From Candidatus Sericytochromatia bacterium (GTDB lineage Bacteria > Cyanobacteriota > Sericytochromatia > S15B-MN24 > UBA4093), in the NCBI GenBank assembly GCA_036676455.1, contig JAKFCW010000011.1:128268-192267 (forward strand): 64,000 bases of DNA, given 5' to 3'. Below the pieces are notes generated by a model that saw only the letters and a program-made list of their open reading frames with translations, was not told the origin of the DNA and did not search any database. Both the position numbers and the translations under genes were made by a program. Shown here one piece after another: positions 103-14,082 of the stretch. Positions within the stretch are counted from its first letter, which is position 1. Each line of letters opens with the position of its first letter.

Positions 103-1748
103 GCTTCCTCCACCTCGAATCCACCCTCATCGAGGATGCTGACAAAACCACCGGTGACGTTGAAAACCTGCTCGAAGCCCCGCTCCTTGAGGATGCGGAC
201 GGCTAGGTGGGCGCGGAATCCGGACCGGCAATGAACGAAGATCCGCCCCGCCCTCGGAAGCTCGTCAAGGCGCGCGCGCAGGTCGTCCACCGGGATGTTC
301 GTGGCGCCCTTCAAGTGGGACTTCGCGAACTCGGCCGGTTTGCGGACATCCAACACGTAAGCCTCCCCGCCGGCCATCGCGGCCTTGAGAGCTGCGGGGG
401 TGACTAGCGGGCTGAAGCCCGAGCAATCGTTGAGCCCGATGAAGGCCGCCAGGTTGATGGGATCGTTGGCCGAGGAATAGGGCGGAGCGTAGGCGAGATC
501 CAGCTCGGCGAGATCCGAGAGTGTGAACTGGCCGTGCAGGGCGGCCGCCAGGACGTCGATGCGCTTTTCGACGCCAGCGCGACCGAACGCCTGGGCGCCC
601 AGCAAGCGGGTCGATTGGCGATCGTAGACCAGTTTCAGCGCGATCTCCTCGGCCCCGGGGTAGTAGCCGGCATGGTGATCCTTGTGGAGGATGGCCACGC
701 CCACCTCGAAGCCTGCCTCGCGGGCGGCCTTCTCGGTGAGCCCGGTCATGGCCGCGGTCGCCTCGAAGATTTTGACGACGCTGGTTCCGAGGGCCCCGGA
801 GTAGCGCATTGAATGTCCCAGGGCGTTCGAGGCCGCGATGCGCCCCTGGCGATTCGCGGGGCCGGCGAGCGGCACCCGGACCCGGCGTCCCGAAACGCGC
901 TGCACGACCTCCACCATGTCTCCGGCCGCGAAGATGTCGGGATCAGAAGTCTGCAGGTGCCCGTCCACCTGCAAGCCACCCGAGGGGCCGATTTCGAGGC
1001 CGGCCTCCTTGGCCAGCAGCAGCTCGGGGCGCACTCCGACCGAAAAGAGCACGATATCCGCCGGGATCAGCCGGCCGTCGGAAAGCTCCACCGCCCGCTC
1101 GCGCACGGCCTGGACTCCGGCCCCCGTGACGACGGAGACTCCGTTCTCTTCGAGCTCGCTGGCGATCCGGCGGCCGTACTCGGCATCCATCACCGCCATG
1201 ACGGTGGGTTGCAGCTCGACGACGGTGGTGGCGAGGCCGCGCTTCTGGAACGCCTCGGCCATCTCGAGCCCGATGAAGCCTCCGCCGACCACGACGGCGG
1301 ACTGGGGAGCGCCGCTCGCGAGGGTCTCATGGATCCGATCCATGTCCGGCACCGTCCAGAGCTTGAACACGTTCGGCCGGTCCATTCCCGGGATCGGCGG
1401 CATCAGAGGCTGTCCGCCCTGCGCCATGATGAGCTTGTCGTAGGAAACCCAGGAGTCGCCCTGAGGCCCGCGGGCCAGGACGCGCTTCTGATCACGATCG
1501 ATCCTCACGATCTCGGTGTCGACATGGACCTCGACACCGTAGCGTGCACGGAAGCCCTCGGGAGTCTGGAGCAGGAGATCGGAGCGATCGGGGATGTCGC
1601 CGGAGATGAAGTAGGGAAGCCCGCAGTTGGCGTACGAGACATAAGGGCCACGCTCGAAGAGCGTGATCTCGGCGTCCTCGCTGATTCGCCGCGCGCGTGC
1701 AGCGGCGGTGGCTCCGGCGGCGACCCCGCCGATGATGACCAGTTTCAT
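99..1748 (-). CDS. CoA-disulfide/persulfide reductase-like flavoprotein with C-terminal rhodanese domain (CoADR-RHD)
   Basis: ORF 99..1847, with the start moved to the ATG at 1746-1748 (MKLVIIGGVAAGATAAARARR, FAD dinucleotide fold). Redox Cys in SYANCGLPYFISG. Second GGGFIGLE NAD(P)H fold. C-terminal rhodanese active-site loop FVHCRSGFRA. Confidence 0.85.
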   Translation of the reverse strand: MKLVIIGGVAAGATAAARARRISEDAEITLFERGPYVSYANCGLPYFISGDIPDRSDLLLQTPEGFRARYGVEVHVDTEIVRIDRDQKRVLARGPQGDSWVSYDKLIMAQGGQPLMPPIPGMDRPNVFKLWTVPDMDRIHETLASGAPQSAVVVGGGFIGLEMAEAFQKRGLATTVVELQPTVMAVMDAEYGRRIASELEENGVSVVTGAGVQAVRERAVELSDGRLIPADIVLFSVGVRPELLLAKEAGLEIGPSGGLQVDGHLQTSDPDIFAAGDMVEVVQRVSGRRVRVPLAGPANRQGRIAASNALGHSMRYSGALGTSVVKIFEATAAMTGLTEKAAREAGFEVGVAILHKDHHAGYYPGAEEIALKLVYDRQSTRLLGAQAFGRAGVEKRIDVLAAALHGQFTLSDLAELDLAYAPPYSSANDPINLAAFIGLNDCSGFSPLVTPAALKAAMAGGEAYVLDVRKPAEFAKSHLKGATNIPVDDLRARLDELPRAGRIFVHCRSGFRAHLAVRILKERGFEQVFNVTGGFVSILDEGGFEVEEA

Positions 1749-1901: not shown

Positions 1902-2051
1902 CCCCTCCAGCGCGACCTTTTTCCCGCCGAGCAGTTTCTGCTCACGGCCCGAACGTCGTACGGGAGTCTCTTGCGATGCGGGGCAAGACGTACCGTTACT
2001 CTCCCCGGCAACGGACAGCAAAAGCGAGCTAAAGAAGTACGCTTGAACCCC

Positions 2052-2080
2052 TTGCATTTGAAAACGGCCTTTGCTATACT
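2052..2080 (+). promoter_or_regulatory. sigma70-like promoter upstream of tRNA-Pro
   Basis: TTGCAT (2052-2057), 17-nt spacer, TATACT (2075-2080), about 70 nt upstream of the mature tRNA 5' end. Confidence 0.4.
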
Positions 2081-2099
2081 TCAATTCTGGCTCGGGGGT

Positions 2100-3887
2100 T
2101 CACCTCGGGTTAACGTTTCCTTCCCCAAAAGGAAAATGAAACGAATGTCGGGGCGTAGCGCAGCTTGGTAGCGCACCACTTTGGGGTAGTGGGGGTCGTG
2201 GGTTCGAATCCCGCCGCTCCGACCTAGACCCCCCTAACGAAAACGATTCGTCGTGATTAGTTAGGGGGGTCATTTTTTCTCCTGCCTGGCTACTCAGGTC
2301 TTTTTTTTTGCGCCTCGCAATCTGGCCTCCCTTTTTGACCGTCTCGGCTAGCGGATTGCCGCATACCGTAGCCTCAAGCGTTTCGCCTTCAAGCTCGAAA
2401 CCAAGCGGAACATATGTGCGAATGATTTCCCGTTGAAGCTCCATGGGCAGCCTTGGCCAAACCCAATCGATGTGATTGATAATTCGCTCAAGATCGTCCA
2501 GCTTTGCTTGGGTAGTATCTTGCCGAACCTCCTTTTCTAGGCGTCCAAGCTCATTCTTCAAGGGCACAATCAGCCGCTCATATTCGAACTCGTCAATGTA
2601 GCCTTTGCGAAACTGGAAGTTGACCTTATCTCTCTCTCGTGACAGCTCGGCAATTTTTGCAGACAGGTCACGAGAGTCAGGCTCCTGGAGGGCAATCAGT
2701 ATCCGGTTGTCTAGAAGCTCGGACTGTCGCTTCCGCATCCCTCGAACCAACAGGCTGAAGGCCGCATCATCGACCGCAACGGCGTTGTATCGCTTGGCAT
2801 CGCAATACTTCTGCTTGCTATTCTTGCTGAGGTTGCAGACATACTTCCGCTGGTACTCGTTTTTCTCATGCCGGGTCATTCGCCTGCCGCACTTCTTACA
2901 AATCAAGTAGCCTGTTAAAAGTACGTCCTCACGCTTCCGGGGCTGCCGCTTGATCGCCCGGCTGTTCAATATGACCTGTACGTCATTGAACACGGACTCA
3001 TCGAGCAGAGGTTCATGAAGTCCTGGATACCACTGTCCTTTGTAAAGAACCTGACCGAGGTAAGCCTTGGACCGTAGCATATCGCTCAAGACACTCGCAT
3101 CCCAAATTGGTGAGGGTGGATAGGGCATGGTCTTCTTCCCTGACGTGACCCGCTTTTTATGGGTTTCTTGGCGTTTCTCACGCTCTACATCGCTCAGGCG
3201 AAGCCAGGGGACAAGGCTAGGGGTCGGCACCTTCAAGTCCGTCAGGTGCCTCGCAATTTCACTGGCGTTTCCGTGCCTGCGAAATTCGGAAATAATCCAT
3301 TTGTACCAGTCTGCAAGACTTCTTCCGCTGTAAACAGTCTCATCTGGCACCCAGCCTGCATAAAGCGCTCGCCCGATCCGATGGTGCCCCTTTTCGCTCT
3401 TGTAGCCAAAGGGCGGATCACCACCAGCAGGCAATCCATTTTTCACTCGAAATGCCTGCTTATCCCGGATCATTTGACCTGTCATTTTCCGCTGGTTTTC
3501 GGCCACAAGGGTCAACATGGTTAGGAGGAAATCACTGTTTGCTGAGCCATCATCCTGTACCGGGTCATCCACGCCAATTAATTTGCAATCCAACTTATTT
3601 AGAACGGATGTAACAATGGCCTTCACTTCTACGGATCGAAACGCTCGATCAATCCGCAATACTATGACTTTTGAGATTCGTTCGTCCCTTACTCGATTTA
3701 TCAACTTAGTAAGCTGAGGGCGCTTCCCAAGTTCCGTTCCTCCCGAGAGGTAGTCCACATACTGGCCTACAAGATCCAAGCCGTTTTTCTCGCAATAGAA
3801 GCGAATCTTATCAATCTGAACATCAGGACTTGCGTCTTGTTTATCATCAGTAGAAGTCCGAATGTATGCAACTACCTTATTGCTCAT
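2100..3887 (-). CDS. large serine recombinase (resolvase/invertase N-domain, recombinase domain, zinc ribbon, coiled coil)
   Basis: ORF 2100..3896 starts at a GTG; the ATG at 3887 gives MSNKVVAYIRTSTDDKQ with the catalytic Ser motif. VIVLRIDRAFRS is present. Zinc-ribbon Cys pattern is CKKCGRRM...VCNL...YC. The frame has no stop until 2100, so it runs antisense through the tRNA; the true C-terminus is uncertain. Confidence 0.85.
   Translation of the reverse strand: MSNKVVAYIRTSTDDKQDASPDVQIDKIRFYCEKNGLDLVGQYVDYLSGGTELGKRPQLTKLINRVRDERISKVIVLRIDRAFRSVEVKAIVTSVLNKLDCKLIGVDDPVQDDGSANSDFLLTMLTLVAENQRKMTGQMIRDKQAFRVKNGLPAGGDPPFGYKSEKGHHRIGRALYAGWVPDETVYSGRSLADWYKWIISEFRRHGNASEIARHLTDLKVPTPSLVPWLRLSDVEREKRQETHKKRVTSGKKTMPYPPSPIWDASVLSDMLRSKAYLGQVLYKGQWYPGLHEPLLDESVFNDVQVILNSRAIKRQPRKREDVLLTGYLICKKCGRRMTRHEKNEYQRKYVCNLSKNSKQKYCDAKRYNAVAVDDAAFSLLVRGMRKRQSELLDNRILIALQEPDSRDLSAKIAELSRERDKVNFQFRKGYIDEFEYERLIVPLKNELGRLEKEVRQDTTQAKLDDLERIINHIDWVWPRLPMELQREIIRTYVPLGFELEGETLEATVCGNPLAETVKKGGQIARRKKKDLSSQAGEKMTPLTNHDESFSLGGSRSERRDSNPRPPLPQSGALPSCATPRHSFHFPFGEGNVNPR
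2149..2222 (+). tRNA. tRNA-Pro (anticodon GGG)
   Basis: Hand-folded cloverleaf. Acceptor CGGGGCG/CGCTCCG (one G-U pair). D arm GCGC-AGCTTGGTA-GCGC. Anticodon arm CCACT-TTGGGGT-AGTGG (anticodon GGG, G37). Variable loop GGGTC. T arm GTGGG-TTCGAAT-CCCGC. Discriminator A. CCA is not encoded. Confidence 0.9.
2206..2225 (+). repeat. att core at the tRNA-Pro 3' end (left junction of island)
   Basis: GAATCCCGCCGCTCCGACCT is repeated exactly at 11213-11232. Its last 18 nt recur at 12764-12781, and a degenerate copy lies at 10381-10404. Confidence 0.8.
2227..2279 (+). terminator. rho-independent terminator after tRNA-Pro (island-encoded)
   Basis: 12-bp stem GACCCCCCTAAC / GTTAGGGGGGTC followed by ATTTTTTCT. 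Confidence 0.7.
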
Positions 3888-4284
3888 TGTCGCCACCGTC
3901 CTTCTTAATACCGATGCGTTCCCACTCAGCCCGATAATTTGCCTTAATATGTTGCTCTGCTATCTGTAAAACCCGAACACAAGCCCGCCGATCATACGAT
4001 TGCAAATTCTCTTCATTTTCCCCCAATGCCTCCTGTTCCTCTAAATGGCATCACTCATTATCGCTTTCCTGAGTGTTGCAACAAACATGCCTAGCTGCAT
4101 CAACCGCCCTGCGTTAATGAGCCGTAACCAAGCTACCAGACAGCCAATACACTATCAACTAAATTTTGGTTAAACTTAACTTCTTCTTTACTCTATAAAT
4201 AGATACTTATGATCTTCTTTCGAGGCTTCGGCCAGATAGATCGAAAAAATGGCGATCCTAAGCCATTTTGCTTTCGGGAAATCG

Positions 4285-4441
4285 GAAAATTTTAACCACA
4301 CCGATTAGGTCCCCATTTCATGCGGGTTCTCGGAAACATTCCCGATAGCGGAGATCCGCCCTGTCAGCGGCTCAGACAGTAGGTACTTCGCCTCAACATG
4401 CAGAGGAGGCGAAGATTCGCCCCGCAAGTGGTTAATTTTGG
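4285..4441. repeat. imperfect inverted repeat pair enclosing a strong hairpin (non-coding, upstream of the HNH gene)
   Basis: GAAAATTTTAACCAC (4285-4299) faces GTGGTTAATTTTGG (4428-4441): TTAACCAC/GTGGTTAA is perfect, then a 1-nt bulge. Inside lies a 9-bp hairpin CTTCGCCTC (4386-4394) / GAGGCGAAG (4406-4414). A separate 8-bp hairpin AAAATGGC/GCCATTTT lies at 4246-4269. Confidence 0.4.
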
Positions 4442-4506
4442 ATAAATAATTAATTAACAGCCGGGTGTTGTCATTTTAAAAGTTCTTTTGTAAGCTAAGC
4501 TCCCGC

Positions 4507-5649
4507 TTGCTCGTTCCTGCTCTAGGAGGCTGTTTATGGCGCTATAAATCACGAAAGGAAGGTAACTATGCCTTGGATATCTATCAACGGAAGGAAGCCC
4601 CTCTAACCCCTCACGAGAAGCCCTGGAAGGCTAAGAGGGATGCGGAGAGGGTTTATTTTCATGAGCTTGGCAAACTTGCCAACACGAAATCGCTTGGTCG
4701 TAGCCAGGACGGAAGAGTAGAGGTCTTCGAACACGTTCTATTTCTTCCTCGGAAGGGCCAATGGCCAAAGAGGTATGCCCGCCTTAAATGGTCAGAGGTC
4801 TGGGCTAACCTGAGCCAGTATTTGGCGATCTTCGAAGAGGTGTACACGAAAATCGAACTGGAATTCCGCTTCTACGATGGGGAGGGGAACACCAGCTTTA
4901 GCGAATCGCTCTTTCCACGTGTTGATCCGGGGGATGAGCAGCGATACAAGACCCTGTACCATGTGACCCAGAAGCACATCCTTAGGCAGGACCTACCTAC
5001 TGTCTATGCCCTTGTTGAGGGCATCTTGTGGTTTATGGGCCAGGAGGGTAGTCACCCGAACTCTACTATTCAGGTCCATCGGGTCATCAACGCAGTCCTC
5101 AACAGAGAGGATCTCCAAGCTCGGGAGATCCATCATAAAGAGAACCCTTTGGGACTAGACAACCGAATCGAGAATCATGAAGCCCTACCTCAGGATGAAC
5201 ATGGTAGGAAGCATCATTACACCTACTCCATGAGGGTTCATGATCAGAGAAGAAACCTTGCGACCTTGAACGAGGCTGCCGATCGGACCTACGATCCCTT
5301 TGAAGACCCTATCTGGATTAGCTACATCGAGAACGATTACCACCTGGAGGAACGACCTGCCCCCCTCGTAACCCAGACGAATAATCCCGATGATGGTGAA
5401 ACGCCAATCCATTTAAGGGTTTCGAAAATGGCCCCGCAACAAGATGAAGAGTATTGGCGCAACCTCCCTCGGGACGAGAACGGCCAGCTATCGCTTTTCC
5501 GAAAAGAGCAACTCCTACCCCGACCTTTAACGTTCGGCGCATACTGGAGCGACATGGGGTGGAACTTTGTTGATACTATGCCCTCATTGCCCGTGACGGC
5601 CATTCCGTCACCCAAGCGCAACTCAGGGAATCAGCAGGCGGCTGCATAG
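4507..5649 (+). CDS. HNH endonuclease domain-containing protein (otherwise uncharacterised)
   Basis: ORF 4507..5649 with a TTG start and no in-frame ATG near the 5' end. A TTG at about 4573 preceded by AAGGAAGG is an alternative start. Central motif VHRVINAVLN...EIHHKENPLGLDNRIENHEALPQDEHGRKHH resembles HNH_3-type nucleases. The flanking regions are unrecognisable. Confidence 0.55.
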   Translation: MLVPALGGCLWRYKSRKEGNYALDIYQRKEAPLTPHEKPWKAKRDAERVYFHELGKLANTKSLGRSQDGRVEVFEHVLFLPRKGQWPKRYARLKWSEVWANLSQYLAIFEEVYTKIELEFRFYDGEGNTSFSESLFPRVDPGDEQRYKTLYHVTQKHILRQDLPTVYALVEGILWFMGQEGSHPNSTIQVHRVINAVLNREDLQAREIHHKENPLGLDNRIENHEALPQDEHGRKHHYTYSMRVHDQRRNLATLNEAADRTYDPFEDPIWISYIENDYHLEERPAPLVTQTNNPDDGETPIHLRVSKMAPQQDEEYWRNLPRDENGQLSLFRKEQLLPRPLTFGAYWSDMGWNFVDTMPSLPVTAIPSPKRNSGNQQAAA

Positions 5650-5743
5650 TTGGCGTACGATTCCGCACGCGTCAACTGGCTCAAGCTAGGCCCGGCAACC
5701 TTGCCAATCTCTGACACCGAATGGCTCCAAGCAGAATTGGTAC

Positions 5744-5771
5744 GGTTGGCAAAGAATGGCAATTGCCAACC
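5744..5771. terminator. stem-loop between convergent genes (possible terminator)
   Basis: Perfect 9-bp stem GGTTGGCAA / TTGCCAACC with a 10-nt loop, 16 nt beyond the stop of the minus-strand gene 5787..6089. No clear U-tract. Confidence 0.3.
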
Positions 5772-5786
5772 ACGTAGGCAACCTTG

Positions 5787-6089
5787 CTAATCCTCCTGCC
5801 CACCGCCATTCCCGTAGTGATGATGGACATGGAAGTGGATAGATTGGCGACGGGCATCAATCATCATCCCGTTTCGCTCTAGAACAGGCTGCCCATCATG
5901 GGCCTGCTCATGTTCCTGGTCAAACGCATAGACTAGACCATCAGCATCGGCGTAACGGATGCCATACTTATTATGGAGGGCCACAAGGGCTGCTCGACTC
6001 TCGGACGAGGCTCCAGATTCTTCCATCTTCCGCTTTGCCCACCTCGCAAAGAACCACAGGCAAAGCCCCAAGCTGATCGGCTCGATCAC
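5787..6089 (-). CDS. hypothetical small membrane-anchored protein
   Basis: 100-aa ORF with an N-terminal hydrophobic helix (EPISLGLCLWFFARWA) and a His-rich C-terminus (HFHVHHHYGNGGG). No recognisable family. Confidence 0.4.
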   Translation of the reverse strand: MIEPISLGLCLWFFARWAKRKMEESGASSESRAALVALHNKYGIRYADADGLVYAFDQEHEQAHDGQPVLERNGMMIDARRQSIHFHVHHHYGNGGGQED

Positions 6090-6214
6090 GTGTGCCTCCT
6101 TCTTTCGGGGGTCGGCAACCCCCTCCGGGGCTGATCAAAAATTACATGTTCTGCCCTGCGCCCAAAAATGCTACCAGGGCTAGGCTCGTTGAAGTGCTTT
6201 ACCGCCCCCCTTGC

Positions 6215-6538
6215 TCACTCCCGTTCGCTCTGGTCTACGACCTTGCCCTCGAATCGGCTAGCCAATAGCTCTACGATGTCCGACTCCTCTTGCCTCCGCC
6301 TTTTTACAGGCGGTTTCAGGTCCTGTTGTGGCCCTGGAAGATAGGTTAGAAGGTCACCAGGACTGCAATTGAGAGCTTCACAGAGCTTGCTCAAGGTATC
6401 GAGGTCGATACGCTGACACAGGTTCCGATCTAGCCGACTGAGATTGGCAACGGTAATCCCGGTCTTCCCTGAGAGGTCCGAAAGACTCAAGCGCCCGGCC
6501 CGCGCCCGCAGTTCTGGTAAGTTGATCTTGATGGCCAT
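6215..6538 (-). CDS. XRE/Cro-CI family helix-turn-helix transcriptional regulator
   Basis: LSLSDLSGKTGITVANLSRLDRNLCQRIDLDTLSKLCEALNCSPGDLL is a typical HTH_XRE pattern. The gene is divergent from a small ORF across an AT-rich region that contains a palindrome. Confidence 0.8.
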   Translation of the reverse strand: MAIKINLPELRARAGRLSLSDLSGKTGITVANLSRLDRNLCQRIDLDTLSKLCEALNCSPGDLLTYLPGPQQDLKPPVKRRRQEESDIVELLASRFEGKVVDQSERE

Positions 6539-6610
6539 GATTTATCTCCGCATGACTGACGCCGATACGTATTTATTCCCAGAAATAAAATAATTCAATT
6601 AATTAATAGA

Positions 6611-6667
6611 ATTTTATCGCTAGTAGATCAATGGCTTTATGTTCTCGATTACCGCTAGCGATAAAAT
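6611..6667. promoter_or_regulatory. 13-bp perfect inverted repeat in the XRE divergent promoter region (candidate operator pair)
   Basis: ATTTTATCGCTAG (6611-6623) and CTAGCGATAAAAT (6655-6667) are separated by 31 bp, inside the 164-bp AT-rich intergenic region. Confidence 0.4.
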
Positions 6668-6702
6668 ACTCGTATCGGCAGTGAGCAAGTGGAGGGCGAG
6701 CA

Positions 6703-6957
6703 ATGAAGAAGACGATTACCCGGACTTCAACGAAATTCCCTGGCCTGATCATGGAGCTTGTCATCAACTCCCAGGAAGCATGGGTGACGTTCAAAAGAGG
6801 TGCGGCGTTCGAAAGCTTTCGCCTCGTCGCAGGCCAAGCGCTTAATGTTGATTGCTCAGACCGTGATTCCCTCTCGTCGCTGGAGATGCGCCACTGCCTG
6901 CGAACGGCGATCCTCTACGCGGAAAAGCTCAACAGGACTCAGACTCGGGCCGCCTAG
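6703..6957 (+). CDS. hypothetical protein (divergent from the XRE regulator)
   Basis: 84-aa ORF with an ATG start and island-like composition. No recognisable motif. Confidence 0.4.
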   Translation: MKKTITRTSTKFPGLIMELVINSQEAWVTFKRGAAFESFRLVAGQALNVDCSDRDSLSSLEMRHCLRTAILYAEKLNRTQTRAA

Positions 6958-7061
6958 CGGCCCCTTTCTTTTGATGGGCATCGGTTAATTGCAGTAAATC
7001 CGATCCTACCGTCATATGTTCGGGTATACAGCAAGCAGGCGTAGCAACAATTTGAGGGCCT

Positions 7062-8033
7062 ATGAGACACGCTCGTTATTTCCTCCCACTAGTCGTACTC
7101 CTCGCCGCTGCATGCGAGCCAGAGGATTATTTCACCAGAGCCTACGAGCCGGGATACATTGGCTTACCAACCAGCCAGAGAACAGGCTCCCAAACTCCCG
7201 TCTCAGATTCTGGAAACAAAACGAACCTTCCACCTGGTAGCGGCGGCTCAGGTTCTACGCCAAAACCAATAGCATCCGCAACTCCGTCTAGTGGCTCTTC
7301 AAGCCCTTCAAGCTCACCGACTCCCGATCCCTCAAAGATGGCGGGGGCTGGCGGCATCTACGTTGACTTCACCTACCCGAACCAGCCGTTGATCGGCGTC
7401 CAAGCTGAAATGAAGATTACGGATGCACCTGATCCCTCCCCTACGGCTGGGGTTATATTTTGGTCGCATCAGTTCAACCTCCAGAACCACGGCGGATACA
7501 TCGGCTTGCAGATTGTCGGGGACAAGCGCAAGGCCATCTTCTCCATGTGGGAGGCCCTTAGCTCGGATACGGGGAACACGTTTGGCGGCGAGGGCGTTGG
7601 CTTTCAAAAAATCATCGACTACGACTGGAGGCCGAATATGACTTATCAAGTCAATGTAACACGGACAAAGACTGATTCAACTGGCGCTTATTGGAGAGGC
7701 TCGGTCACAGACCTTACCACCGGAGCCGAGACGTATTTGGCAACCCACAAAGTGCCCTTGACCCATGGCACGATCCGAAATGCCTCCGTATGGACGGAAT
7801 ACGCAACGCATCGATACTGCGAGGTGCCGTACACGCGAGCCGAGTTTTCCAACCCCAAGGCCCTTTCTGATAACACCTGGCTCCCGGCAAGCAGTGCCAA
7901 GGGAACTTACTTATTCAATGTGTATAGTTCCTGCCCGCTTTCCAACTTCATCAAGCTTCCTGGCCCCGCTGCCGCTCTTGAAGTCGGAGTAGGGGTAGAG
8001 CGAGTTACTCCAGAGAACACAAGGTTATGGTGA
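7062..8033 (+). CDS. secreted lipoprotein with Ser/Pro-rich linker and beta-sandwich-like C-terminal domain (DUF3472-like by eye)
   Basis: Signal peptide plus lipobox MRHARYFLPLVVLLAAAC. Low-complexity linker SGSSSPSSSPTPDPS. C-terminal block VIFWSHQFNLQNHGGYIGLQIVGDKRKAIFSMWEA. Confidence 0.6.
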   Translation: MRHARYFLPLVVLLAAACEPEDYFTRAYEPGYIGLPTSQRTGSQTPVSDSGNKTNLPPGSGGSGSTPKPIASATPSSGSSSPSSSPTPDPSKMAGAGGIYVDFTYPNQPLIGVQAEMKITDAPDPSPTAGVIFWSHQFNLQNHGGYIGLQIVGDKRKAIFSMWEALSSDTGNTFGGEGVGFQKIIDYDWRPNMTYQVNVTRTKTDSTGAYWRGSVTDLTTGAETYLATHKVPLTHGTIRNASVWTEYATHRYCEVPYTRAEFSNPKALSDNTWLPASSAKGTYLFNVYSSCPLSNFIKLPGPAAALEVGVGVERVTPENTRLW

Positions 8034-8061
8034 GGGGGGCATGCAGCCCCCCGCCTTTGCG

Positions 8062-8973
8062 TCATCGGAGATTTTCTAGCGTCCTCTTGACCGTCTGATC
8101 CGAAACTTTTGCATACCTCATGGTCGTTTGCAGGTTCTTGTGACCGAGGATCTTCCCCACCACCTCCACCGGAGCGCCCTTGTTGATGAGGTCGGTAGCG
8201 TGGGAATGGCGTAGAGAGTGAATCGTGCAATCGATTCCAGCCTCCTGGCTGTAGCGCTTCCAGGCTTTGGCGATCACCGAATACTCCACAGGCTTACCAG
8301 TGAGGCCATACCGCTGCTTCGCCTCGTTGGGCCGGAAGATCAGCCCGTCTATGATCTGGTGCTTCCTCATGTACCACTTAAGCAAGCGGAGGCTCTCGGT
8401 CTTCACAAGATGGATCGTCCTCTCCTTCTGCCCCTTGCCCCGGACGGTGAACTCCTGGGCATCAAGGCGAAGGTCCTCCACCCGGAGCGCAAGAGCCTCA
8501 GATATCCGCAAGCCCGTCTCGCTGATGAGCGTAAATAGAACCTTGTCTCGGTCATTCGTGATCACGGACAGAATCTTGTTGACCTGAGCCATGGGAAGGA
8601 ATCGGGGTTGCGAATCGGGCAACCGGATCGCCCCGATTTTATCCATGGGATTGGCGGGGATGAGGTCATGGCGGAAGGCCCACCGGAGGAAGCTCTTTAG
8701 GCTGGCTTGCTTCCGGGAGAGGCTTGCAGGGCTGAGCGTGTCCACCAACGAGCCGAAGTATTCCCGGAGGATGGCGGGCGACAGATCGGAGAGACTCCCC
8801 TTGTAGAAGCGCAGGAAGGCCATGAGATCGGCCTGGTAGTTCTTGATTGTGTGCTGACTCTTGTTCTCGGTCTTGAGATCGATAAAGAACTCGTCCACAA
8901 GTTGGACGAGGGAAGGAGTGCGCTCCATGGCCTTGCGAAAAGCGGTGACTTCTCCCATTGAACTGCCCTCCAT
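8062..8973 (-). CDS. tyrosine recombinase/integrase (XerC/XerD-like)
   Basis: ETGLRISEALALRVEDL (Arg I), HSLRHSHATDL (H-x-x-R) and LGHKNLQTTMRYAKV (Tyr nucleophile). The ORF track starts at a TTG at 8985; the first ATG is at 8973. Confidence 0.85.
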   Translation of the reverse strand: MEGSSMGEVTAFRKAMERTPSLVQLVDEFFIDLKTENKSQHTIKNYQADLMAFLRFYKGSLSDLSPAILREYFGSLVDTLSPASLSRKQASLKSFLRWAFRHDLIPANPMDKIGAIRLPDSQPRFLPMAQVNKILSVITNDRDKVLFTLISETGLRISEALALRVEDLRLDAQEFTVRGKGQKERTIHLVKTESLRLLKWYMRKHQIIDGLIFRPNEAKQRYGLTGKPVEYSVIAKAWKRYSQEAGIDCTIHSLRHSHATDLINKGAPVEVVGKILGHKNLQTTMRYAKVSDQTVKRTLENLR

Positions 8974-9169
8974 CTCACTGTGCAATATAAAGATGAAATT
9001 GACCGAAAATTGAGCGGCCCGAAAGCCGCTCGTTCTGGATTAATTATCCCCGCTTGTGCCACATAATAATCATTATATAACACTGCGAACAATTTAAGTT
9101 TGATCGTAAGTTGAGCAGGGTAAGCAAGCAATGGTAAGCGAATAATATCCATTGTTGGCGAGGCATGGC

Positions 9170-9784
9170 ATGAAGCACCGAAACATTTACAGCATTATTC
9201 TTTTCGTATTGTTTCTTGGAATATCTTCCCCCCCACCAGTATGGTCCGCAAGTCTTCAACGGTATGCCGTTGTAACGAAGGATCAAAATACTGGGATTCT
9301 GGATGTTAGCGACAAAAGCTTTTACCCACTTGGAATGCCTATTTCTGATTTTGTCTCCAAATTCGGTTCTCCAGACAATGTGAGAAGAGAGCCAGAGTAC
9401 GATAGCAAAGGCGATGACAACCCGAGAGCTAACTATTCCTACTACAGTTATTATGCTGAAGGAATAGAGGTTATTGCAGATCCAAAGAACAGACTATCAT
9501 CATTTTACTTGTATACGCAGTCATATGCGAATTCCAGAGGCACTGAATATCGTTCTACGTCAGCAATTGCTTGGAATAATGGACGAGAGCTAGATCTGAC
9601 CCTGACAACTGCAGTGACTCCTAGGCAAATTTCTAGGATATACGGACCGCACTCAGACCACAGATCGTATCACTCCGATTCACTTTACTTTGATTCATAC
9701 ATATATGATGCAGGAAACAGCAGCATAACATTCAACTTCAACAGAATCGGGCTACAGTATATTTTCGTTGCAGGAAAGAATTAA
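9170..9784 (+). CDS. hypothetical secreted protein
   Basis: ORF 9152..9784; the ATG at 9170 gives MKHRNIYSIILFVLFLGISSPPPVWSA, a signal peptide. AT-rich codon usage. No family recognised. Confidence 0.5.
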   Translation: MKHRNIYSIILFVLFLGISSPPPVWSASLQRYAVVTKDQNTGILDVSDKSFYPLGMPISDFVSKFGSPDNVRREPEYDSKGDDNPRANYSYYSYYAEGIEVIADPKNRLSSFYLYTQSYANSRGTEYRSTSAIAWNNGRELDLTLTTAVTPRQISRIYGPHSDHRSYHSDSLYFDSYIYDAGNSSITFNFNRIGLQYIFVAGKN

Positions 9785-9797
9785 CAAGGAGGAAATC

Positions 9798-10262
9798 GTG
9801 CTACCTATGGCAAAGAAGGCTGTATTTACTGTTTTGTCGTTGACCATGCTAACGTCATGCGCAGCGTTTCTACGTTCCGTACCAGAGGGAGCGCATGTAA
9901 TGCCAAAAGACGGATTTTGGACTGTTTCTAGCATCGGGCCAAGAGACAGATACTGGGAAATCATGACAAATGAATCAAATGAAAAGATTATGAGGCTATA
10001 TTTTGATGACAAAGGTCAAGTCTTGATTAAGAAAGGAGACGGGACCTTATTATCCAATTACCTTGGAAAATGGTCGAATGGCCGTGTGAGCTTCAGTACC
10101 TTTGAGCAGAAATCTGCAGACTTAATGGAAATGGTAAAGTATGAATTTTCCATTGATAATGAGAACCAGCTTACGGGTCAGGCCGAGCTTTCAATAGACT
10201 ATGCAGGCGACTTTAAGGTAAGAAAGCAACAAGTTCGAGCGACCCTAAAACGAGCGCTCTAA
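9798..10262 (+). CDS. hypothetical lipoprotein
   Basis: AAGGAGG at 9786-9792, then a GTG at 9798 (or an ATG at 9807). MAKKAVFTVLSLTMLTSC contains a lipobox. No family recognised. Confidence 0.5.
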   Translation: MLPMAKKAVFTVLSLTMLTSCAAFLRSVPEGAHVMPKDGFWTVSSIGPRDRYWEIMTNESNEKIMRLYFDDKGQVLIKKGDGTLLSNYLGKWSNGRVSFSTFEQKSADLMEMVKYEFSIDNENQLTGQAELSIDYAGDFKVRKQQVRATLKRAL

Positions 10263-10347
10263 GAATTTCGGTAGAGGGAGTCGTGACCATCCCCCCAGAA
10301 TAATCGTAAATGCTTCCTGCTTAAGGCAGCTACTCGGCAGGAGCAAC

Positions 10348-10404
10348 GGATGGAATCACTGGGAGGGCCTTCTGCGAGCAGGAATCCCGCCGATCCAACC
10401 TGAA
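10348..10404 (+). repeat. degenerate copy of the att region / tRNA 3'-like fragment
   Basis: GGATGGAATCACTGGGAGGGCCTTCTGCGAGCAGGAATCCCGCCGATCCAACCTGAA aligns with 11180-11236 (GGATGGAACCACTGGGGGTCCTTTTGCGAGTAGGAATCCCGCCGCTCCGACCTGAA). The core has two mismatches. Confidence 0.6.
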
Positions 10405-10456
10405 GACCTCCATTCCAGTAGGCACGCCTATTGGAATGGAGGTCTTAACTTTTCTC
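10403..10456 (+). terminator. rho-independent terminator following the degenerate att copy
   Basis: 15-bp stem AAGACCTCCATTCCA / TGGAATGGAGGTCTT followed by AACTTTTCTC. Confidence 0.6.
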
Positions 10457-10517
10457 GCGACATGGATTGCACCCGAGCGGATTGTACTTTGGACTCTTTC
10501 ATGGTAATCTATGGATG

Positions 10518-10557
10518 ACGGCTTGCAGGGCTTCTAACTGCGGGCCGTTTTTCTTTT
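10518..10557 (+). terminator. variant copy of the tRNA-Pro-associated terminator hairpin
   Basis: ACGGCTTGCAG-GGCTTCTAA-CTGCGGGCCGT-TTTTCTTTT. The loop and tail match the hairpins at 11257-11298 and 12806-12847. The stem is kept through G-U wobble pairs. Confidence 0.5.
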
Positions 10558-10611
10558 GCCTTTATCCTTTGCTTGAACCAAAGCCCAGGCGATCACAAGA
10601 GGTGGCAAGAG

Positions 10612-11091
10612 ATGCGGATTGTTGATTCGGTTACCGTTTCATTCAAGATCACGGGCCTAGGATGGCTCGACACCGCCATCTCTGATGGCCACCAAACTTT
10701 TCACGAAGAGATATCCGATGTCCATGGCGGTGGTCTGCCAGAGATCGTAGATACGCTCGTCAACTTCTGTGAGTCAAAGAGTAGCCAATCTGTAGCGTTT
10801 GAACTTGAGCCAGGAAACCCAGTCCTTAGGCTTGATCACCAAGGCACTCTGATGCGAGTTCGGATTGGAGGCTCTGGCCTACTTCAAGATGAAGAAGACT
10901 GGGCTGACTATGGACTCCGAATCGACTTCTTCTGCGCTCCCAGTGTCTTCATTAAGGCTGTTTACGAGGCAGTGAATGCACTTATTGCCCAGCATGGTTA
11001 CGATGGAATTAACAACCAATGGGACGGTACGGCCCTCACCGAAGCCCAAGTCAATCGCCTTCAAGATGTAGTCTCAAAAGCGGCCTGTTAA
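10612..11091 (+). CDS. hypothetical protein
   Basis: ORF 10573..11091 (TTG start); the first ATG at 10612 gives MRIVDSVTVSFKITGLGW. No recognisable family. It sits between two att-like copies. Confidence 0.45.
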   Translation: MRIVDSVTVSFKITGLGWLDTAISDGHQTFHEEISDVHGGGLPEIVDTLVNFCESKSSQSVAFELEPGNPVLRLDHQGTLMRVRIGGSGLLQDEEDWADYGLRIDFFCAPSVFIKAVYEAVNALIAQHGYDGINNQWDGTALTEAQVNRLQDVVSKAAC

Positions 11092-11214
11092 TCGCCCGAC
11101 CCAGTGGCATTAGGCTCAACGCCTTTCTACGGTACCCTTATGCTCCCCATGACGGTCGGCCTTTTGAGGGACCAAGAGGGGATGGAACCACTGGGGGTCC
11201 TTTTGCGAGTAGGA

Positions 11215-11298
11215 ATCCCGCCGCTCCGACCTGAATCCCGCAAGGGAATCGAGAATAGACCGCCAGCAGGGCTTCTAACTGCTGGCGGTCTTTCTTTT
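11215..11298 (+). repeat. 84-bp direct repeat copy A (tRNA-Pro 3' end plus downstream terminator)
   Basis: Matches 12764-12847 with two mismatches by my reading (CAAGGGAATCGAG vs CAAGGAAATCAAG). Contains the terminator AGACCGCCAGCAG-GGCTTCTAA-CTGCTGGCGGTCT-TTCTTTT (11257-11298). Confidence 0.85.
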
Positions 11299-11477
11299 GC
11301 TGCTGTCCCCCAACTACCGCAAAAACCAAGCTTATTGGGTTAAAAGCTAATGACCGAGTACGAGTCTGCCTCTACAACAAAGAAACGTCACTAGGTCGGA
11401 CGCCGTACGAATCTCGGAGGTCACCTCCCAAGGGGCGCGCTCTTAATTGCCCGACGGCCGGTTGGGATTTGAAGTGC

Positions 11478-11506
11478 TTGACAGCAATATTGCCTCAACA
11501 CATCAT
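11478..11506 (+). promoter_or_regulatory. candidate sigma70 promoter of the arsR-family operon
   Basis: TTGACA (11478-11483), 17-nt spacer, CATCAT (11501-11506). Confidence 0.35.
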
Positions 11507-11517
11507 GTAATCATGAT
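11502..11517. promoter_or_regulatory. candidate ArsR/SmtB operator palindrome
   Basis: ATCATG-TAAT-CATGAT, a perfect 6-N4-6 inverted repeat that overlaps the putative -10 and lies 14 nt upstream of the start codon. Confidence 0.4.
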
Positions 11518-11530
11518 ATGAGGAGAAAAC

Positions 11531-11923
11531 GTGATGGCTGATGCCCCCCCGTTAAGCCCAAGAACTGAATGCGTTGCCCCCTGCTCCTACCTTCCTCGGA
11601 TGGAACACGGTCAAAGGCACCTTCTACAGCCGGAAATGCTTACTGAAATGAGCATCATCTTTCGGCTCCTGGGCGACCCAGTCCGTCTCCAAATCGTTCA
11701 CCTTTTAAGCAAATCTGAGCTCTGCGTCTGCGACCTTTCCGAATTGCTTCATGCCGGTCAATCCACCATCTCCAACCATCTCCGAATTCTAAGAGACAAT
11801 CGGCTTGTGCGGACACGGCGGGAGGGAAAGCTCATCTTTTACAGCCTCAACGCCCCGCACCTTACGGCCGTGATCAACGAAACTGCCGCCCAAGTCGCAG
11901 AAGAGAAAGAGGTCGCACTTTGA
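11531..11923 (+). CDS. ArsR/SmtB family metalloregulator (CadC-like Cys pattern)
   Basis: LGDPVRLQIVHLLSKSELCVCDLSELLHAGQSTISNHLRILRDNRLV contains the ELCVCDL alpha-3 metal site and the wHTH. N-terminal Cys pair ECVAPC. GAGGAG precedes the GTG at 11531 and the ATG at 11534. Confidence 0.85.
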   Translation: MMADAPPLSPRTECVAPCSYLPRMEHGQRHLLQPEMLTEMSIIFRLLGDPVRLQIVHLLSKSELCVCDLSELLHAGQSTISNHLRILRDNRLVRTRREGKLIFYSLNAPHLTAVINETAAQVAEEKEVAL

Positions 11924-12582
11924 TCACCCAGCCCAACCTCGACCAGCATCAACGCAAGAACCTCGCCCTAGGGCTGGGGCTCGTTCTCATCACGATGGCC
12001 TACAACGCGGTCGAGATGTTCCTTGCACTCTGGGCGGGCTTTCATGACCGCAGTATCTCGCTCGAAGCCTTTGGTCTCGACAGCATCATCGAGTTTGTCC
12101 TGGGAGCGGTCCTGGTCTGGCGCCTCGTAGTTGAAGCTCGTGGTGCCAATGAGGAACGCATCGAGCAGGTGGAGCGCCGAGCCAACTGGTGGGCTGGCGC
12201 CGTCTTCTACGCCTTGGCTGCGGTCATCGCCCTCGGTTCGGCAGTCACGCTCTGGACCCGCACCGAATCCGAGCCAGGTCCGCTTGGCATCGGTTTGGCC
12301 TTGGCGTCGGTCATTGTCATGCCCATCATCGCGACCGCCAAGAAGCGTGTCGGTACGGCCATCGGAAGTGCGGCGTTGAAAGCCGAAGCCAACTGCACCT
12401 GGGTCTGCGCCTACATGTCCGCGACTCTTTTGCTCGGCTTGCTGCTTACCAAGTACCTGGGCTGGTGGTGGGCTGACCCGCTGGCCGCCCTGGGCATCCT
12501 CTACTGGATCGTCGGTGAGGGGCGCGAGAGCTTCGAGCGAGCTGCTGGACGGGACACCTGCTGTAGTTGTTCGCACGACTGA
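11920..12582 (+). CDS. cation transporter, CDF-like membrane domain only
   Basis: TTG start overlaps the arsR-family stop (TTGA). Six predicted hydrophobic segments. AYNAVEMFLALWAGFHDRSISLEAFGLDSIIEF resembles CDF TM1-2. Cys-rich tail DTCCSCSHD. Confidence 0.6.
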   Translation: MITQPNLDQHQRKNLALGLGLVLITMAYNAVEMFLALWAGFHDRSISLEAFGLDSIIEFVLGAVLVWRLVVEARGANEERIEQVERRANWWAGAVFYALAAVIALGSAVTLWTRTESEPGPLGIGLALASVIVMPIIATAKKRVGTAIGSAALKAEANCTWVCAYMSATLLLGLLLTKYLGWWWADPLAALGILYWIVGEGRESFERAAGRDTCCSCSHD

Positions 12583-12763
12583 CCCCAGGTGGCCGAGGAC
12601 GTCTCGGTCTCGCGCGAGACGGCCCGAACCTCAGAGCCCAGTCCTATCATCCTGGATACAGCCCGCTTTGATCGGCACGTGAAACTCGGTGCCTTATGCC
12701 AAAAGCAGCGAGTGAACAAGGTTCTGGACCTTTGTGGCATGGGGTGCCTCAACCGAAGTAACC

Positions 12764-12847
12764 ATCCCGCCGCTCCGACCTGAATCCCGCAAGGAAATCA
12801 AGAATAGACCGCCAGCAGGGCTTCTAACTGCTGGCGGTCTTTCTTTT
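12764..12847 (+). repeat. 84-bp direct repeat copy B (outermost att copy plus presumed original tRNA-Pro terminator)
   Basis: See copy A. The terminator hairpin is at 12806-12847. GC-rich host-like sequence resumes to the right. Confidence 0.85.
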
Positions 12848-12874
12848 CTCCGCACGTTCGGTAGAAGGAGAGCT

Positions 12875-13780
12875 ATGATGCAAGTCCCACCGAGAAATGG
12901 AGAGCCTTGCGTGACCAACCTCGAATCGACCCAGTCCCCCCTCATCCGTGATATCTCAGACACCGCCCGATGGGCGGCATGGTGTCGGGCCGTCGAGAGC
13001 GAACGCCCTGACGCGCTCTTCAATGATTACCTTGCCAAGCGCCTCGCTGGTGAGAGGGGGCCAGCCATCGAGCAGGCCATGAGCAAGCAACGGGGGTCCA
13101 CCGTATCCTCCCTGGTCGTTCGGACGGTCGCGTTCGATACGATGATCCTGGACCGCATCTCGGAGGGAGGGATCGACACCGTCGTCAACCTGGCCGCCGG
13201 GCTTGACACCCGCCCCCATCGGCTTGCCTTGCCCCGGGACCTTCGGTGGATCGAGGTCGACCTTCCGAACCTGGTCGCTTACAAGGAGGCATACCTTGCA
13301 AACGAGCCCGGCGCATGCAGGATTGAGCGGGTCGGCCTCGACTTGTCGGCGGTGGAAACCAGGCGAAAACTACTGGCTTCGATAGGCGAAACCTCGAATG
13401 CCGTCCTGGTGCTGACCGAGGGGCTGATCCTGTACCTGGAACCCACGGTGGTCAAGGAGCTTGCCATCGACTTGGCGGGCGTACCGGCGTTTCGCACCTG
13501 GTTGATGGACTTGCTTCACCCGGCGATGCTTCCCTTCGTCACCCGCAGCTGGAACACCCAGGAGGCGGGCTCGGCGAACGTACCTCAGTTCGCTCCCGAG
13601 GGAGGTGCCGAGTTCTTCCACCCCTTCGGGTGGACCTTGCACCACTGGGTCAGTGCCTTTGACGAGGCGGAACGCCTCAACCGGGCAATCACCCCGGCTG
13701 GGGTAATCCTAACGGATGCCCAGCGGGAGGCCTCCCGAACCATGAACACGTACGTCCGTCTCGATCGGGCCATGACGTAG
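12875..13780 (+). CDS. class I SAM-dependent methyltransferase (leucine carboxyl / O-methyltransferase-like family)
   Basis: ORF 12734..13780 trimmed to the ATG at 12875, which follows GAAGGAG; the upstream part is a translation of the att/terminator repeat. Motifs: DTARWAAWCRAVESERPDALFNDYLA and VVNLAAGLDTRPHRL. Confidence 0.75.
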   Translation: MMQVPPRNGEPCVTNLESTQSPLIRDISDTARWAAWCRAVESERPDALFNDYLAKRLAGERGPAIEQAMSKQRGSTVSSLVVRTVAFDTMILDRISEGGIDTVVNLAAGLDTRPHRLALPRDLRWIEVDLPNLVAYKEAYLANEPGACRIERVGLDLSAVETRRKLLASIGETSNAVLVLTEGLILYLEPTVVKELAIDLAGVPAFRTWLMDLLHPAMLPFVTRSWNTQEAGSANVPQFAPEGGAEFFHPFGWTLHHWVSAFDEAERLNRAITPAGVILTDAQREASRTMNTYVRLDRAMT

Positions 13781-13892
13781 TCTCGTCACCCCGACCTTCG
13801 ACCGCAGGAGAAGTCGGTACGCGACTCCGCCACGAGCAGCGTGCTGTCCAGGTCTTGGAAGGTTGGGATTGATACGGTTGCTCGAAAATCGG

Positions 13893-13933
13893 CGGCCAGC
13901 AGGGCATCTCGCTGCTGGCCGTCTATCGTTTTC
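13893..13933 (+). terminator. terminator-like hairpin after the methyltransferase gene
   Basis: 10-bp stem CGGCCAGCAG / CTGCTGGCCG with a 9-nt loop, followed by TCTATCGTTTTC. Confidence 0.45.
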
Positions 13934-14082
13934 ACTGAGTTCGGGACAGTGATCGGGTGGGGTACGTCGCCCCGCACTTCAATTATACGTCCAACAAGGG
14001 GGCTTGCTTCAAGCCCCGGGTCGTGCCGCACAATCATTAGCCTCTGGTGAGCAATCCTATGGGGCAGGAGAGAGGAGCGAAC

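Follow-up and report, generated by a model that had tools for sequence, protein, structure and literature searches.

The DNA considered here is a stretch of 64,000 nucleotides (henceforth the window) from a Candidatus Sericytochromatia bacterium (contig JAKFCW010000011.1, positions 128,268 to 192,267). Near its left end, a gene for tRNA-Pro(GGG) is followed by three segments of foreign DNA in tandem, A, B, and C, each of which ends on the right with a copy of the tRNA gene's 3' end. As judged from comparison of these junctions with those of related elements, the array was probably built through site-specific recombination by large serine recombinases (LSRs) of a single clade. Tandem islands at tRNA genes are ordinary; the unusual part of this one is the enzyme.

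Repeats and foreign DNA beside tRNA-Pro(GGG)

The features on which the argument turns are as follows (coordinates are those of the window):

2149-2224, + strand: tRNA-Pro(GGG), intact, the B (left) half of attL (ARAGORN, Rfam); 100% identical to the tRNA of the related contig L087
2206-2225, + strand: identity block of attL; the minimal core common to all relatives is 2209-2225 (junction alignment)
2226-2285, + strand: P' arm of A, AGACCCCCCTAAC followed by a hairpin and a T-run, within the tail of the LSR open reading frame (ORF); inverted repeat 2227-2241 / 2257-2271
2100-3896, - strand: LSR, conserved part about 2330-3890, with Resolvase, Recombinase, and Zn-ribbon domains
2226-10381: element A, 8.2 kb, with LSR, 380-aa protein, HTH regulator, DUF3472 protein, tyrosine recombinase, and two low-GC ORFs
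10348-10401, + strand: A/B junction, P-type arm (GGATGGAATCACTGGGAGGG...) and degenerate core with two acceptor-stem mismatches; 87% identical to 11180-11232
10402-11212: segment B, 0.8 kb, remnant without integrase, with P'-like hairpin (10403-10446), hairpin-2 (10515-10559), and ORF (10573/10612-11091)
11180-11232, + strand: attR of the A(+B) unit, P-type arm and exact 20-nt core
11233-11384, + strand: left end of C, module copy 1 (11233-11298) and its conserved continuation (11299-11384)
12698-12781, + strand: right arm of C (P_C, 12698-12763) and 18-nt core (12764-12781)
12782-12852, + strand: module copy 2, leading into a SAM-dependent methyltransferase gene (12875-13780)

ARAGORN found one tRNA gene in the window, tRNA-Pro(GGG) at 2149-2224 (+), and the tRNA model of Rfam concurs (59.7 bits). 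The 20-mer GAATCCCGCCGCTCCGACCT at the 3' end of the gene occurs at four sites, where 0.02 matches would be expected by chance (four matches were seen in 0 of 100 shuffles). It is exact at 2206-2225 and 11213-11232, carries two mismatches at 10382-10401, and at 12762-12781 carries two, both at the 5' end, with 18 nt exact from 12764. The original prediction, made from the letters of the sequence alone, had listed these copies, and the search bears out both the exact repeat at 11213-11232 and the 18-nt copy at 12764-12781. The copy with two mismatches exists as well, though not at 10381-10404, where it had been placed.

The likeness between junctions extends past the core in ways that the original prediction did not mention. 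The copies at 11213 and 12764 are parts of a 91-nt direct repeat (11208-11298 and 12757-12847, 95% identical), the last 66 nt of which, here called the module, consist of a small hairpin, then a second hairpin (hairpin-2, GACCGCCAGCAGGGCTTCTAACTGCTGGCGGTC), and then a T-rich tail. A diverged third copy of hairpin-2 lies within 10500-10559. Also, the stretches of about 54 nt that lead up to the 10382 and 11213 cores agree at 86-87% of their positions (GGATGGAAyCACTGGGrG...GCGAGyAG). Rfam gave no match at the repeats except a weak one to ctRNA_p42d (10515-10559, 22.8 bits against a gathering score of 50), which merely reflects hairpin-2. Beyond 12781, no convincing further att copies or arms were found; a core-like 16-mer at 33843 was rejected as an att copy, having three mismatches, which is at the level of chance. 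The region has the signature of a tRNA-gene island, in that an intact tRNA and a displaced direct copy of its 3' end bracket foreign DNA.

The foreignness is evident in composition. The GC fraction is 0.506 in A (2226-10381), 0.513 in B (10402-11212), 0.577 in C (11233-12763), and 0.616 in 12782-14046, against 0.64-0.67 outside the array segments and 0.665 for the host. The AT-richness that the original prediction had noted between 2226 and about 11200 is therefore real, and the GC and k-mer check that it proposed marks all three segments as foreign: the tetranucleotide distances of A, B, and C from the host background each exceed those of all 300 equal-sized host windows. The region 12782-14046 is marginally atypical by the same measure (2.3% of equal-sized host windows are equally deviant). 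The steady rise of GC away from the tRNA is consistent with older insertions lying farther from it.

Segment B has no integrase, and its ORF (start 10573 or 10612, end 11091), which the original prediction had picked out and which is confirmed here, gave no match in family searches. By tblastn (E < 10), no LSR remnant or second LSR pseudogene was found in B, in C, or farther downstream. The hairpin-2 variant of B is 91% identical to one inside the tail of LSR1 in the related contig L082, and together with the P'-like hairpin, this points to B as the stump of a second LSR-type element. Two changes in the core at 10382 would unpair acceptor positions 68 and 72; either this core has decayed or it never served as the end of a tRNA.

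Segment C carries as cargo only an ArsR-type regulator and a CDF transporter:

11531-11923, + strand: ArsR/SmtB metalloregulator (Pfam HTH_5, 7.5e-18; NCBIfam HTH_metalloreg, 96.5 bits)
11920-12582, + strand: short CDF transporter, membrane domain only (Pfam Cation_efflux, 6.1e-13)

The transporter aligns with positions 5-187 of the 285 in the NCBIfam model (48.9 bits against a cut-off of 82). Arm, core, and module together (12698-12847, 150 nt) have a counterpart of 86.7% identity at a junction in LC028, a metagenome-assembled genome (MAG) of Sericytochromatia. There, a second and more degenerate copy of the junction stands 3.8 kb on, and genes encoding an ArsM-like methyltransferase, ArsR, and an Acr3-type transporter lie between the two:

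contig JAKFCT010000069.1, reverse-complement coordinates 3754-7681: LC028 cassette (L096), 3.8 kb

The likeness suggests that integrase-less, ArsR-regulated efflux cassettes, made up of module, cargo, right arm, and core, are a recurrent family. In L096, an IS3-family transposase fragment and a subtilase are found upstream of the ArsM-ArsR-Acr3 cassette. Since B and C are both bounded by junctions of arm plus core, they would answer to the description of cis-mobilizable elements (CIMEs), which have att flanks of the same specificity as an integrative element and are without integrase and transfer genes.

The recombinase at the junction

The original prediction had remarked that it is the serine recombinase that sits at the junction, and indeed the LSR ORF runs into the tRNA. 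The encoded protein has the domains of an LSR (Pfam Resolvase PF00239, 8.8e-25, residues 8-154; Recombinase PF07508, 2.1e-8, 195-312; Zn_ribbon_recom PF13408, 2.9e-10, 326-378), and the catalytic residues R13, S15, R84, and R87 are invariant in an alignment of seven sequences. By domains and by catalytic residues, then, it is a large serine recombinase. The ORF has no stop codon inside the element, and its tail, in antisense, takes in the P' arm, the core, and all of the tRNA; the same ORF was called in the protein database (595 aa). The predicted length of 598 aa in the integrated state would become 580 aa if a circle were closed at 10385 and 595 aa if it were closed at 11216, so integration would alter the predicted C-terminus. 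A role for the tail as a conserved peptide was considered and rejected, because among the elements it crosses the tRNA in three different reading frames, as expected of read-through.

Two named families were considered for the LSR and set aside. XisF is the best-scoring one in NCBIfam, but at 117.7 bits against a cut-off of 375, the protein is not an XisF equivalog. The Ccr recombinases of staphylococcal cassette chromosome (SCC) elements score far under their cut-offs of 700-900 (CcrB 58.3, CcrA 51.9, and CcrC 37.1 bits), and the target in the window is a tRNA rather than the 3' end of rlmH.

A search for homologues of the LSR returned 29 matches among 5.8 billion proteins, six of them with more than 30% identity over the full length. 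The contigs examined were those of the full-length homologues plus three from a metagenome scan. In each of the five integrated cases (the window, L083, L084, L087, and L088), the LSR ORF ends antisense inside tRNA-Pro(GGG). The LSRs of the four relatives are 52-65% identical to one another and 32-36% identical to that of the window, a distance that implies an old association. In L082, L085, and L097, a core resembling the tRNA 3' end lies inside the LSR tail with no tRNA present, and these look like attP-like or tandem-junction sites. A single member of the clade was found in GTDB species representatives and none in viral contigs. No genes were found in common between element A and related LSR elements except the LSR itself and a distant tyrosine recombinase in L083.

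One relative, L087, from contig Ga0180215_1000102, has a complete element, with attL at one end and, about 11.1 kb away, attR at the other. The tRNA there is identical to that of the window, and the 117 nt upstream of it are 94% identical. No PF00589 domain was found in the ORFs scanned in L087, and tblastn with a set of 102 tyrosine recombinases matched nothing there. The flank that follows attR matches window 11216-11384 at 87.6%.

What an unoccupied site might look like is indicated by two independent assemblies, L094 and L095, in which tRNA-Pro(GGG) is joined directly to the module. Their tRNA region is 95% identical to window 2032-2225, including the 117 nt upstream of the tRNA, and the sequence after the tRNA is 98.8% identical to 11213-11298 and 98.9% identical to 12764-12852 (89 nt). 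This is the B-B' junction that would be predicted without 2226-11212 (or 2226-12763), and the sequence to the right of tRNA-Pro in L094 and L095 is also what follows attR in L087. The original prediction had suggested a look for empty tRNA-Pro sites in related genomes, and these two junctions, on contigs that stop 90-100 nt farther on, are what the search produced. Together with the succession of arm-plus-core junctions, they uphold the order that it had proposed: tRNA, 8-kb element, remnant with one ORF, metal cassette, and flank.

All junctions were aligned on TCCCGC. At every internal junction, an element-type (P) arm stands on the left and a P'-type arm or the module on the right. Identity to the tRNA starts at 2206 in the copies at 10382 and 11213, at 2208 in the copy at 12764, and at 2209 in attR of L087; it never starts to the right of T2209. 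P arms have a G-run at -25 to -19 and P' arms a C-run at +19 to +25, the latter as CCCCCC(AC)TAAC in six elements (the run is kept in L083, L084, L085, L087, and L097 and reads CCCTCC in L088). For the window and L087, G-run and C-run form a dyad with its centre at the step T2209/C2210; the identity block, however, is 17-20 bp in length. Attachment sites of serine integrases have a non-palindromic central dinucleotide with half-sites of about 25 bp on each side, and T2209/C2210 is the putative dinucleotide at which the crossover took place.

In every integrated case, the P' end matches the acceptor stem of the host gene, pairing with that gene's own 5' strand (CGCTCCG in the window, L087, and L088; CTCTCCG in L083; CGTCCCG in L084). 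If the crossover is at TC, then the last 16 nt of the tRNA in attL are derived from the element, and the P' arm is obliged to match the acceptor stem. An element that rebuilds the 3' end of a tRNA in this way would generate an identity block of 17-20 bp with no need of a tyrosine enzyme. An overlap region in the T-loop is excluded, since identity in L087 starts only at the last T of that loop. A 5-bp shift between attP and attB of the motif for the zinc-ribbon domain (ZD), considered by analogy with a model reportedly put forward for the A118-type (LI) serine integrase of Listeria, was dropped: the tRNA arm has two G-runs (anticodon, -27 to -24, and -19 to -15), which renders the comparison ambiguous.

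The second recombinase of the array, whose presence and different family the original prediction had recognized and Pfam confirms, is a tyrosine recombinase:

8062-8985, - strand: Xer-like tyrosine recombinase, 307 aa, internal to A (Pfam Phage_integrase, 7.7e-36, and SAM_1)

Its best families in NCBIfam are XerC, XerA, and XerD, all under the equivalog cut-offs. Scores of 180.5 bits with TIGR02224 (cut-off 335) and 159.4 with TIGR02225 (cut-off 330) led to its rejection as a XerC/XerD chromosome-dimer resolvase; its likeness to Xer is confined to the architecture (SAM_1 plus catalytic domain). The gene lies 1.4-2.2 kb from the nearest att copies. Homologues that are 62-79% identical occur in the interior of islands that bear their own tyrosine integrase of 372-375 aa and an HTH_17 excisionase. 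The island of L090 ends at tRNA-Met, and those of L094 and L095 adjoin tRNA-Phe; in L092 and L093, no tRNA was found within the contigs examined. Where the island is at tRNA-Met or tRNA-Phe, the Xer-like gene marks the border between core genes on one side and, on the other, variable cargo for defence (MmeI, SduA, HamA plus helicase, reverse transcriptase, D12 methylase). A counterpart of window 8073-9081, the gene with some 110 nt of upstream sequence, is present in L098 at 93% identity between stretches of unrelated DNA. Occurrence inside islands at other tRNAs and as a separate unit in L098 suggests a portable internal accessory that is not specific to tRNA-Pro. The unit may mediate the exchange of cargo, and its enzyme appears not to be the tRNA-Pro integrase.

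The history that we favour would run as follows. Element A would be an intact integrative island whose LSR gene abuts attL and whose ORF tail reads across the attachment site. The LSR would bring together attP and the part of the tRNA gene that comprises T-arm and acceptor, and would exchange strands at or near T2209/C2210; this attP would have the G-run of its P arm about 20-25 bp to the left and the C-run of its P' arm 19-25 bp to the right. All of the tRNA 3' of the crossover would then come from the element, whose P' arm encodes the last 16 nt and a terminator hairpin; this hairpin and its T-run are predicted to be able to terminate the tRNA transcript. B would be the decayed remnant of a second LSR-type element and C an integrase-less ArsR-CDF cassette, both of them CIME-like and mobilized by an enzyme supplied in trans. 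The left end of C is a copy of the native flank (66 nt), and a tRNA with C behind it would for that reason still resemble an unoccupied attB, where the next LSR element may insert. The unit A+B (2226-11212) would have been inserted either as one composite or in two steps, and the Xer-like gene would have come along as an internal accessory.

A number of observations weigh against this history. Canonical LSRs need only 2 bp of identity and are not known to recombine attP with attL, so stepwise accretion requires either that the module serve as a mimic of attB or that a whole composite be transferred. The latter alternative, in which A and B entered as one composite circle of 9.0 kb with an unused attP-like junction at 10382, is a variant of the favoured history, and its chances seem to us appreciable, if short of even. 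The junction at 10382 is of the P-P' type, its two core mismatches would break the acceptor stem were it to serve as the end of a tRNA, and transfer of composite elements is documented for tandems of CIMEs with integrative and conjugative elements (ICEs) (PMC5704250). However, the two mismatches could equally be decay after insertion, and no relative with the same A-B pair was found. Other difficulties concern the evidence from relatives, all of which are metagenomic contigs. L094 and L095 end 90-100 nt past the tRNA, repetition of the module in those genomes being the probable reason, and as a result, their seemingly empty site is indistinguishable from a tRNA followed by a C-type cassette. 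The arm to the left of the core in L085 (1960-2020) is tRNA-like, not P-like, and two LSRs of L082 (6350-10102) converge on a single att core (8345-8363). No recombination directionality factor was identified in the window. Moreover, the repeat around C, 91 nt at 95% identity, is much longer than a recombinase core and far exceeds what a site-specific mechanism needs. One might therefore suppose that some of the repeats, this pair foremost, arose by local duplication or homologous recombination within the array and that C is rearranged flank DNA. The flank after attR in L087 continues like window 11299-11384, so this stretch could be native, and hairpin-2-like terminators are found elsewhere in the host (13887-13931 and 33099-33142). 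Yet the layout of core and module, ArsR-regulated transporter, homologous right arm, and core recurs in LC028 with other cargo, none of the 300 equal-sized host windows is as deviant as C, and a G-run stands at -25 to -22 in the arm that precedes the 12764 core, like those of the other P arms. Local duplication or homologous recombination is, in our judgment, an unlikely source of these repeats.

It might also be proposed that the junctions are the work of a tyrosine recombinase, be it the Xer-like enzyme (8062-8985) or some integrase no longer present, with the LSR a passenger, resolvase, or invertase that happens to be at the element's end. The original prediction leaned in this direction insofar as it held that 20 bp of identity fits tyrosine recombination better than serine recombination, while declining to assign the junctions to either enzyme. 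A block of 17-20 bp identical to the 3' end of a tRNA is indeed the usual signature of a tyrosine integrase, and as of 2015, tyrosine integrases were the only family known at tRNA genes (PMC4383910). Genes for tyrosine recombinases occur both in the window and in L083, an ORF of L088 matches Phage_integrase weakly (below threshold), and the conserved right arm of C, at least 65 nt in length, is more like the arm regions of a tyrosine-integrase attP. Set against these points are the location of the window's tyrosine enzyme, 1.4-2.2 kb from any att copy and of a kind that elsewhere is internal to islands with an integrase of their own; the complete element of L087, which has no detectable tyrosine recombinase; the position and orientation of the LSR at tRNA-Pro(GGG), which all five cases share even where identity falls to about 34%; and the exclusion of the T-loop by the junction in L087. 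We regard a tyrosine recombinase as a distinctly unlikely author of the junctions. The argument from 20 bp of identity is thus not supported, and the choice of enzyme is largely settled, by inference from the relatives, for the serine recombinase.

Other genes of the array, its relatives, and its flanks

Besides its two recombinases, element A encodes the following:

4507-5649, + strand: 380-aa protein with no Pfam match and a weak HNH-endonuclease-like stretch (residues 179-249; phrog_7545 HNH, E = 9.4e-5)
6215-6538, - strand: Cro/C1-type HTH regulator (Pfam HTH_26, 1.2e-16; PHROG repressor families)
7062-8033, + strand: DUF3472 protein, likely secreted cargo (Pfam DUF3472, 1.5e-15)
9152-10262, + strand: two overlapping ORFs (210 and 164 aa) of low GC, distal cargo (ORF calling)

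The two distal ORFs have no family match in Pfam, PHROG, or NCBIfam, and the GC fraction of 8986-10381 is 0.431.

In six of the related contigs, a conserved ORF of 90-120 aa, with the motif ...GI(T/R)QVAP(P/S)R.F...C...AL, abuts the start codon of the LSR:

L083 9636-10001; L084 1210-1491; L097 880-1203; also just upstream of the LSR in L085, L087, and L088: small ORF by LSR

No such ORF was detected in the window. It is a candidate for an accessory or directionality factor. The two LSRs of L082 differ from each other: LSR1 (733 aa) has a C-terminal HTH_17 domain, like that of excisionases, and runs antisense through the core, and LSR2 (598 aa), missed by the gene caller, runs in the sense direction into the core and, at 39% identity, is the best match found to the LSR of the window. 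In L085, the left arm is a degenerate 3' half of tRNA-Pro, GGTTAGGGGGTCGTGGGTGCCAC, with the tRNA absent. L085 could be an LSR element within a displaced tRNA fragment or else an attP that mimics a tRNA. The cargo of L083 (1-9358) includes an OLD-family ATPase/TOPRIM protein and a UvrD helicase (Gabija-like), RadC, a Rep_trans rolling-circle initiator, and an Xer-like recombinase. That of L087 (842-5469) includes a fused N6-methylase/specificity protein and an IS200-like Y1 transposase.

The native order of genes in related hosts (L087 11774-14355; L094 3474-14928) is MetRS, tRNA-Phe, tRNA-Pro(GGG). In these hosts, defence islands with a tyrosine integrase occupy tRNA-Phe (L094, L095), and LSR elements are found at tRNA-Pro (L087). 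Upstream of the window's tRNA, homology ends at 2032, and an oxidoreductase gene is found there instead. This gene (99-1847, -; Pyr_redox_2 plus rhodanese) has homologues of 83-88% identity in two Sericytochromatia MAGs; tRNA-Pro is absent from those two loci, and they have no neighbours in common, hence they are uninformative regarding an empty site. Antisense within the same gene, there is a match at 1561-1729 (+) to V_AS7, a Vibrio antisense RNA in Rfam (67.7 bits, below the gathering score of 90); its most likely source is the conserved coding sequence, not a gene for an RNA.

On the right, the methyltransferase encoded by 12875-13780 gave a single match, 48% identical, in a Pyrinomonadaceae MAG, and the exact protein is not on record. 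Copy 2 of the module, which leads into this gene, is either the native 3' flank of tRNA-Pro or the left end of a further, older cassette, and we hold with moderate confidence that the native flank resumes at 12782. The hairpins at 13887-13931 and 33099-33142 have the hairpin-2 stem (GACCGCCAGCAG/CTGCTGGCGG) and tail (TTTCTTTTGC) with different loops. The presence of such terminators elsewhere in the host suggests that hairpin-2 is a host terminator type captured by the elements.

Relation to known systems

The paper describing Islander (2015) reports that serine recombinases were not known to use tRNA genes (PMC4383910), a 2026 survey of proviruses found that those with serine integrases prefer coding sequences (PMC13626063), and the LSR survey by Durrant et al. 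makes no mention of tRNA. The array nonetheless has much in common with Islander-type tRNA islands made by tyrosine integrases, such as those of the P4 family: a tRNA that would have been rebuilt by the element, a displaced 3' copy, an integrase gene beside the junction, and tandem elements of which the one next to the tRNA would be the newest. It differs in the family of the integrase: all five integrated cases have an LSR at the junction, and the enzyme that made the window's junctions appears to be of that family, not a tyrosine integrase.

With phiC31, Bxb1, A118, TP901-1, and the set of Durrant et al., the window's LSR shares the order of domains, the location of the integrase gene by attP, and an apparent imperfect dyad in attP, and the putative central dinucleotide is non-palindromic, as it is for the serine integrases of phages and ICEs. 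For a serine recombinase, an identity of comparable length is seen in phage JC1, whose overlap with the 5' end of rimO is 18 bp (PMC9144972). Unlike the phage and ICE integrases, the LSR of the window has a tRNA rather than a protein-coding gene as its putative target, an identity of 17-20 bp that would stem from a rebuilt gene end, and an ORF tail that extends across attP.

Among serine-recombinase systems, the nearest analogue of an array that stands in tandem at a gene's 3' end is provided by SCCmec and other SCC elements. Their recombinases (CcrAB, CcrC) are of the serine family, and their target, the housekeeping gene rlmH, bears direct repeats at its 3' end that are about 15-18 bp long. 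SCC arrays are tandem and include pseudo-SCC elements that have resistance cargo and no recombinase. The window differs in target (a tRNA), in enzyme (an LSR, not Ccr), and in host (a Sericytochromatia-like bacterium). With respect to the integrase-less segments, the nearest precedent is the accretion and mobilization of CIMEs, a three-step scheme derived from tyrosine-integrase elements at the ends of protein-coding genes or at tRNAs (PMC5704250). As in arrays of the ICESt1/ICESt3 type, B and C are flanked by att sites, are without integrase and transfer genes, and stand in tandem with an intact element of the same specificity; unlike those arrays, that of the window has no conjugation or mobilization genes that could be seen.

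From the cyanobacterial lineage itself comes XisF, which acts in excision of the fdxN element of Anabaena and is the best named family for the LSR, though not an equivalog. XisF excises a developmental element and is not known to act on a tRNA. Also from this lineage come the tycheposons of Prochlorococcus, 27 of 937 of which carry an LSR instead of a tyrosine recombinase; the passages of that report covered here give no att sites or tRNA target for the LSR-bearing elements (10.1101/2020.12.28.424599). Tycheposons, as described in those passages, resemble the array in that they are cargo-carrying elements in tandem by tRNA genes in a host of cyanobacterial lineage. They differ in that no replication module (primase or helicase) was seen in A, and the tRNA-Pro listed for them has the anticodon TGG.

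These comparisons lead to a broader proposal, to which we would give slightly better than even chances: that a deep clade of LSRs (about 34% identical across its span) has specialized on the T-arm and acceptor end of tRNA-Pro(GGG), rebuilding the 3' end from the P' arm, and that integrase-less metal cassettes that mimic the flank regenerate the target, enabling one lineage to build and reshuffle arrays. The array documents mobile metal(loid)-resistance cassettes in the little-studied Sericytochromatia. Confirmation of the proposal would provide cofactor-light integrases with a conserved tRNA landing site, which may be of practical interest for genome engineering. It would mean, also, that the length of a repeat is by itself an unsafe guide for assigning a junction to one family of recombinases, and that the strategy of rebuilding the end of a gene evolved independently in both the tyrosine and the serine families.

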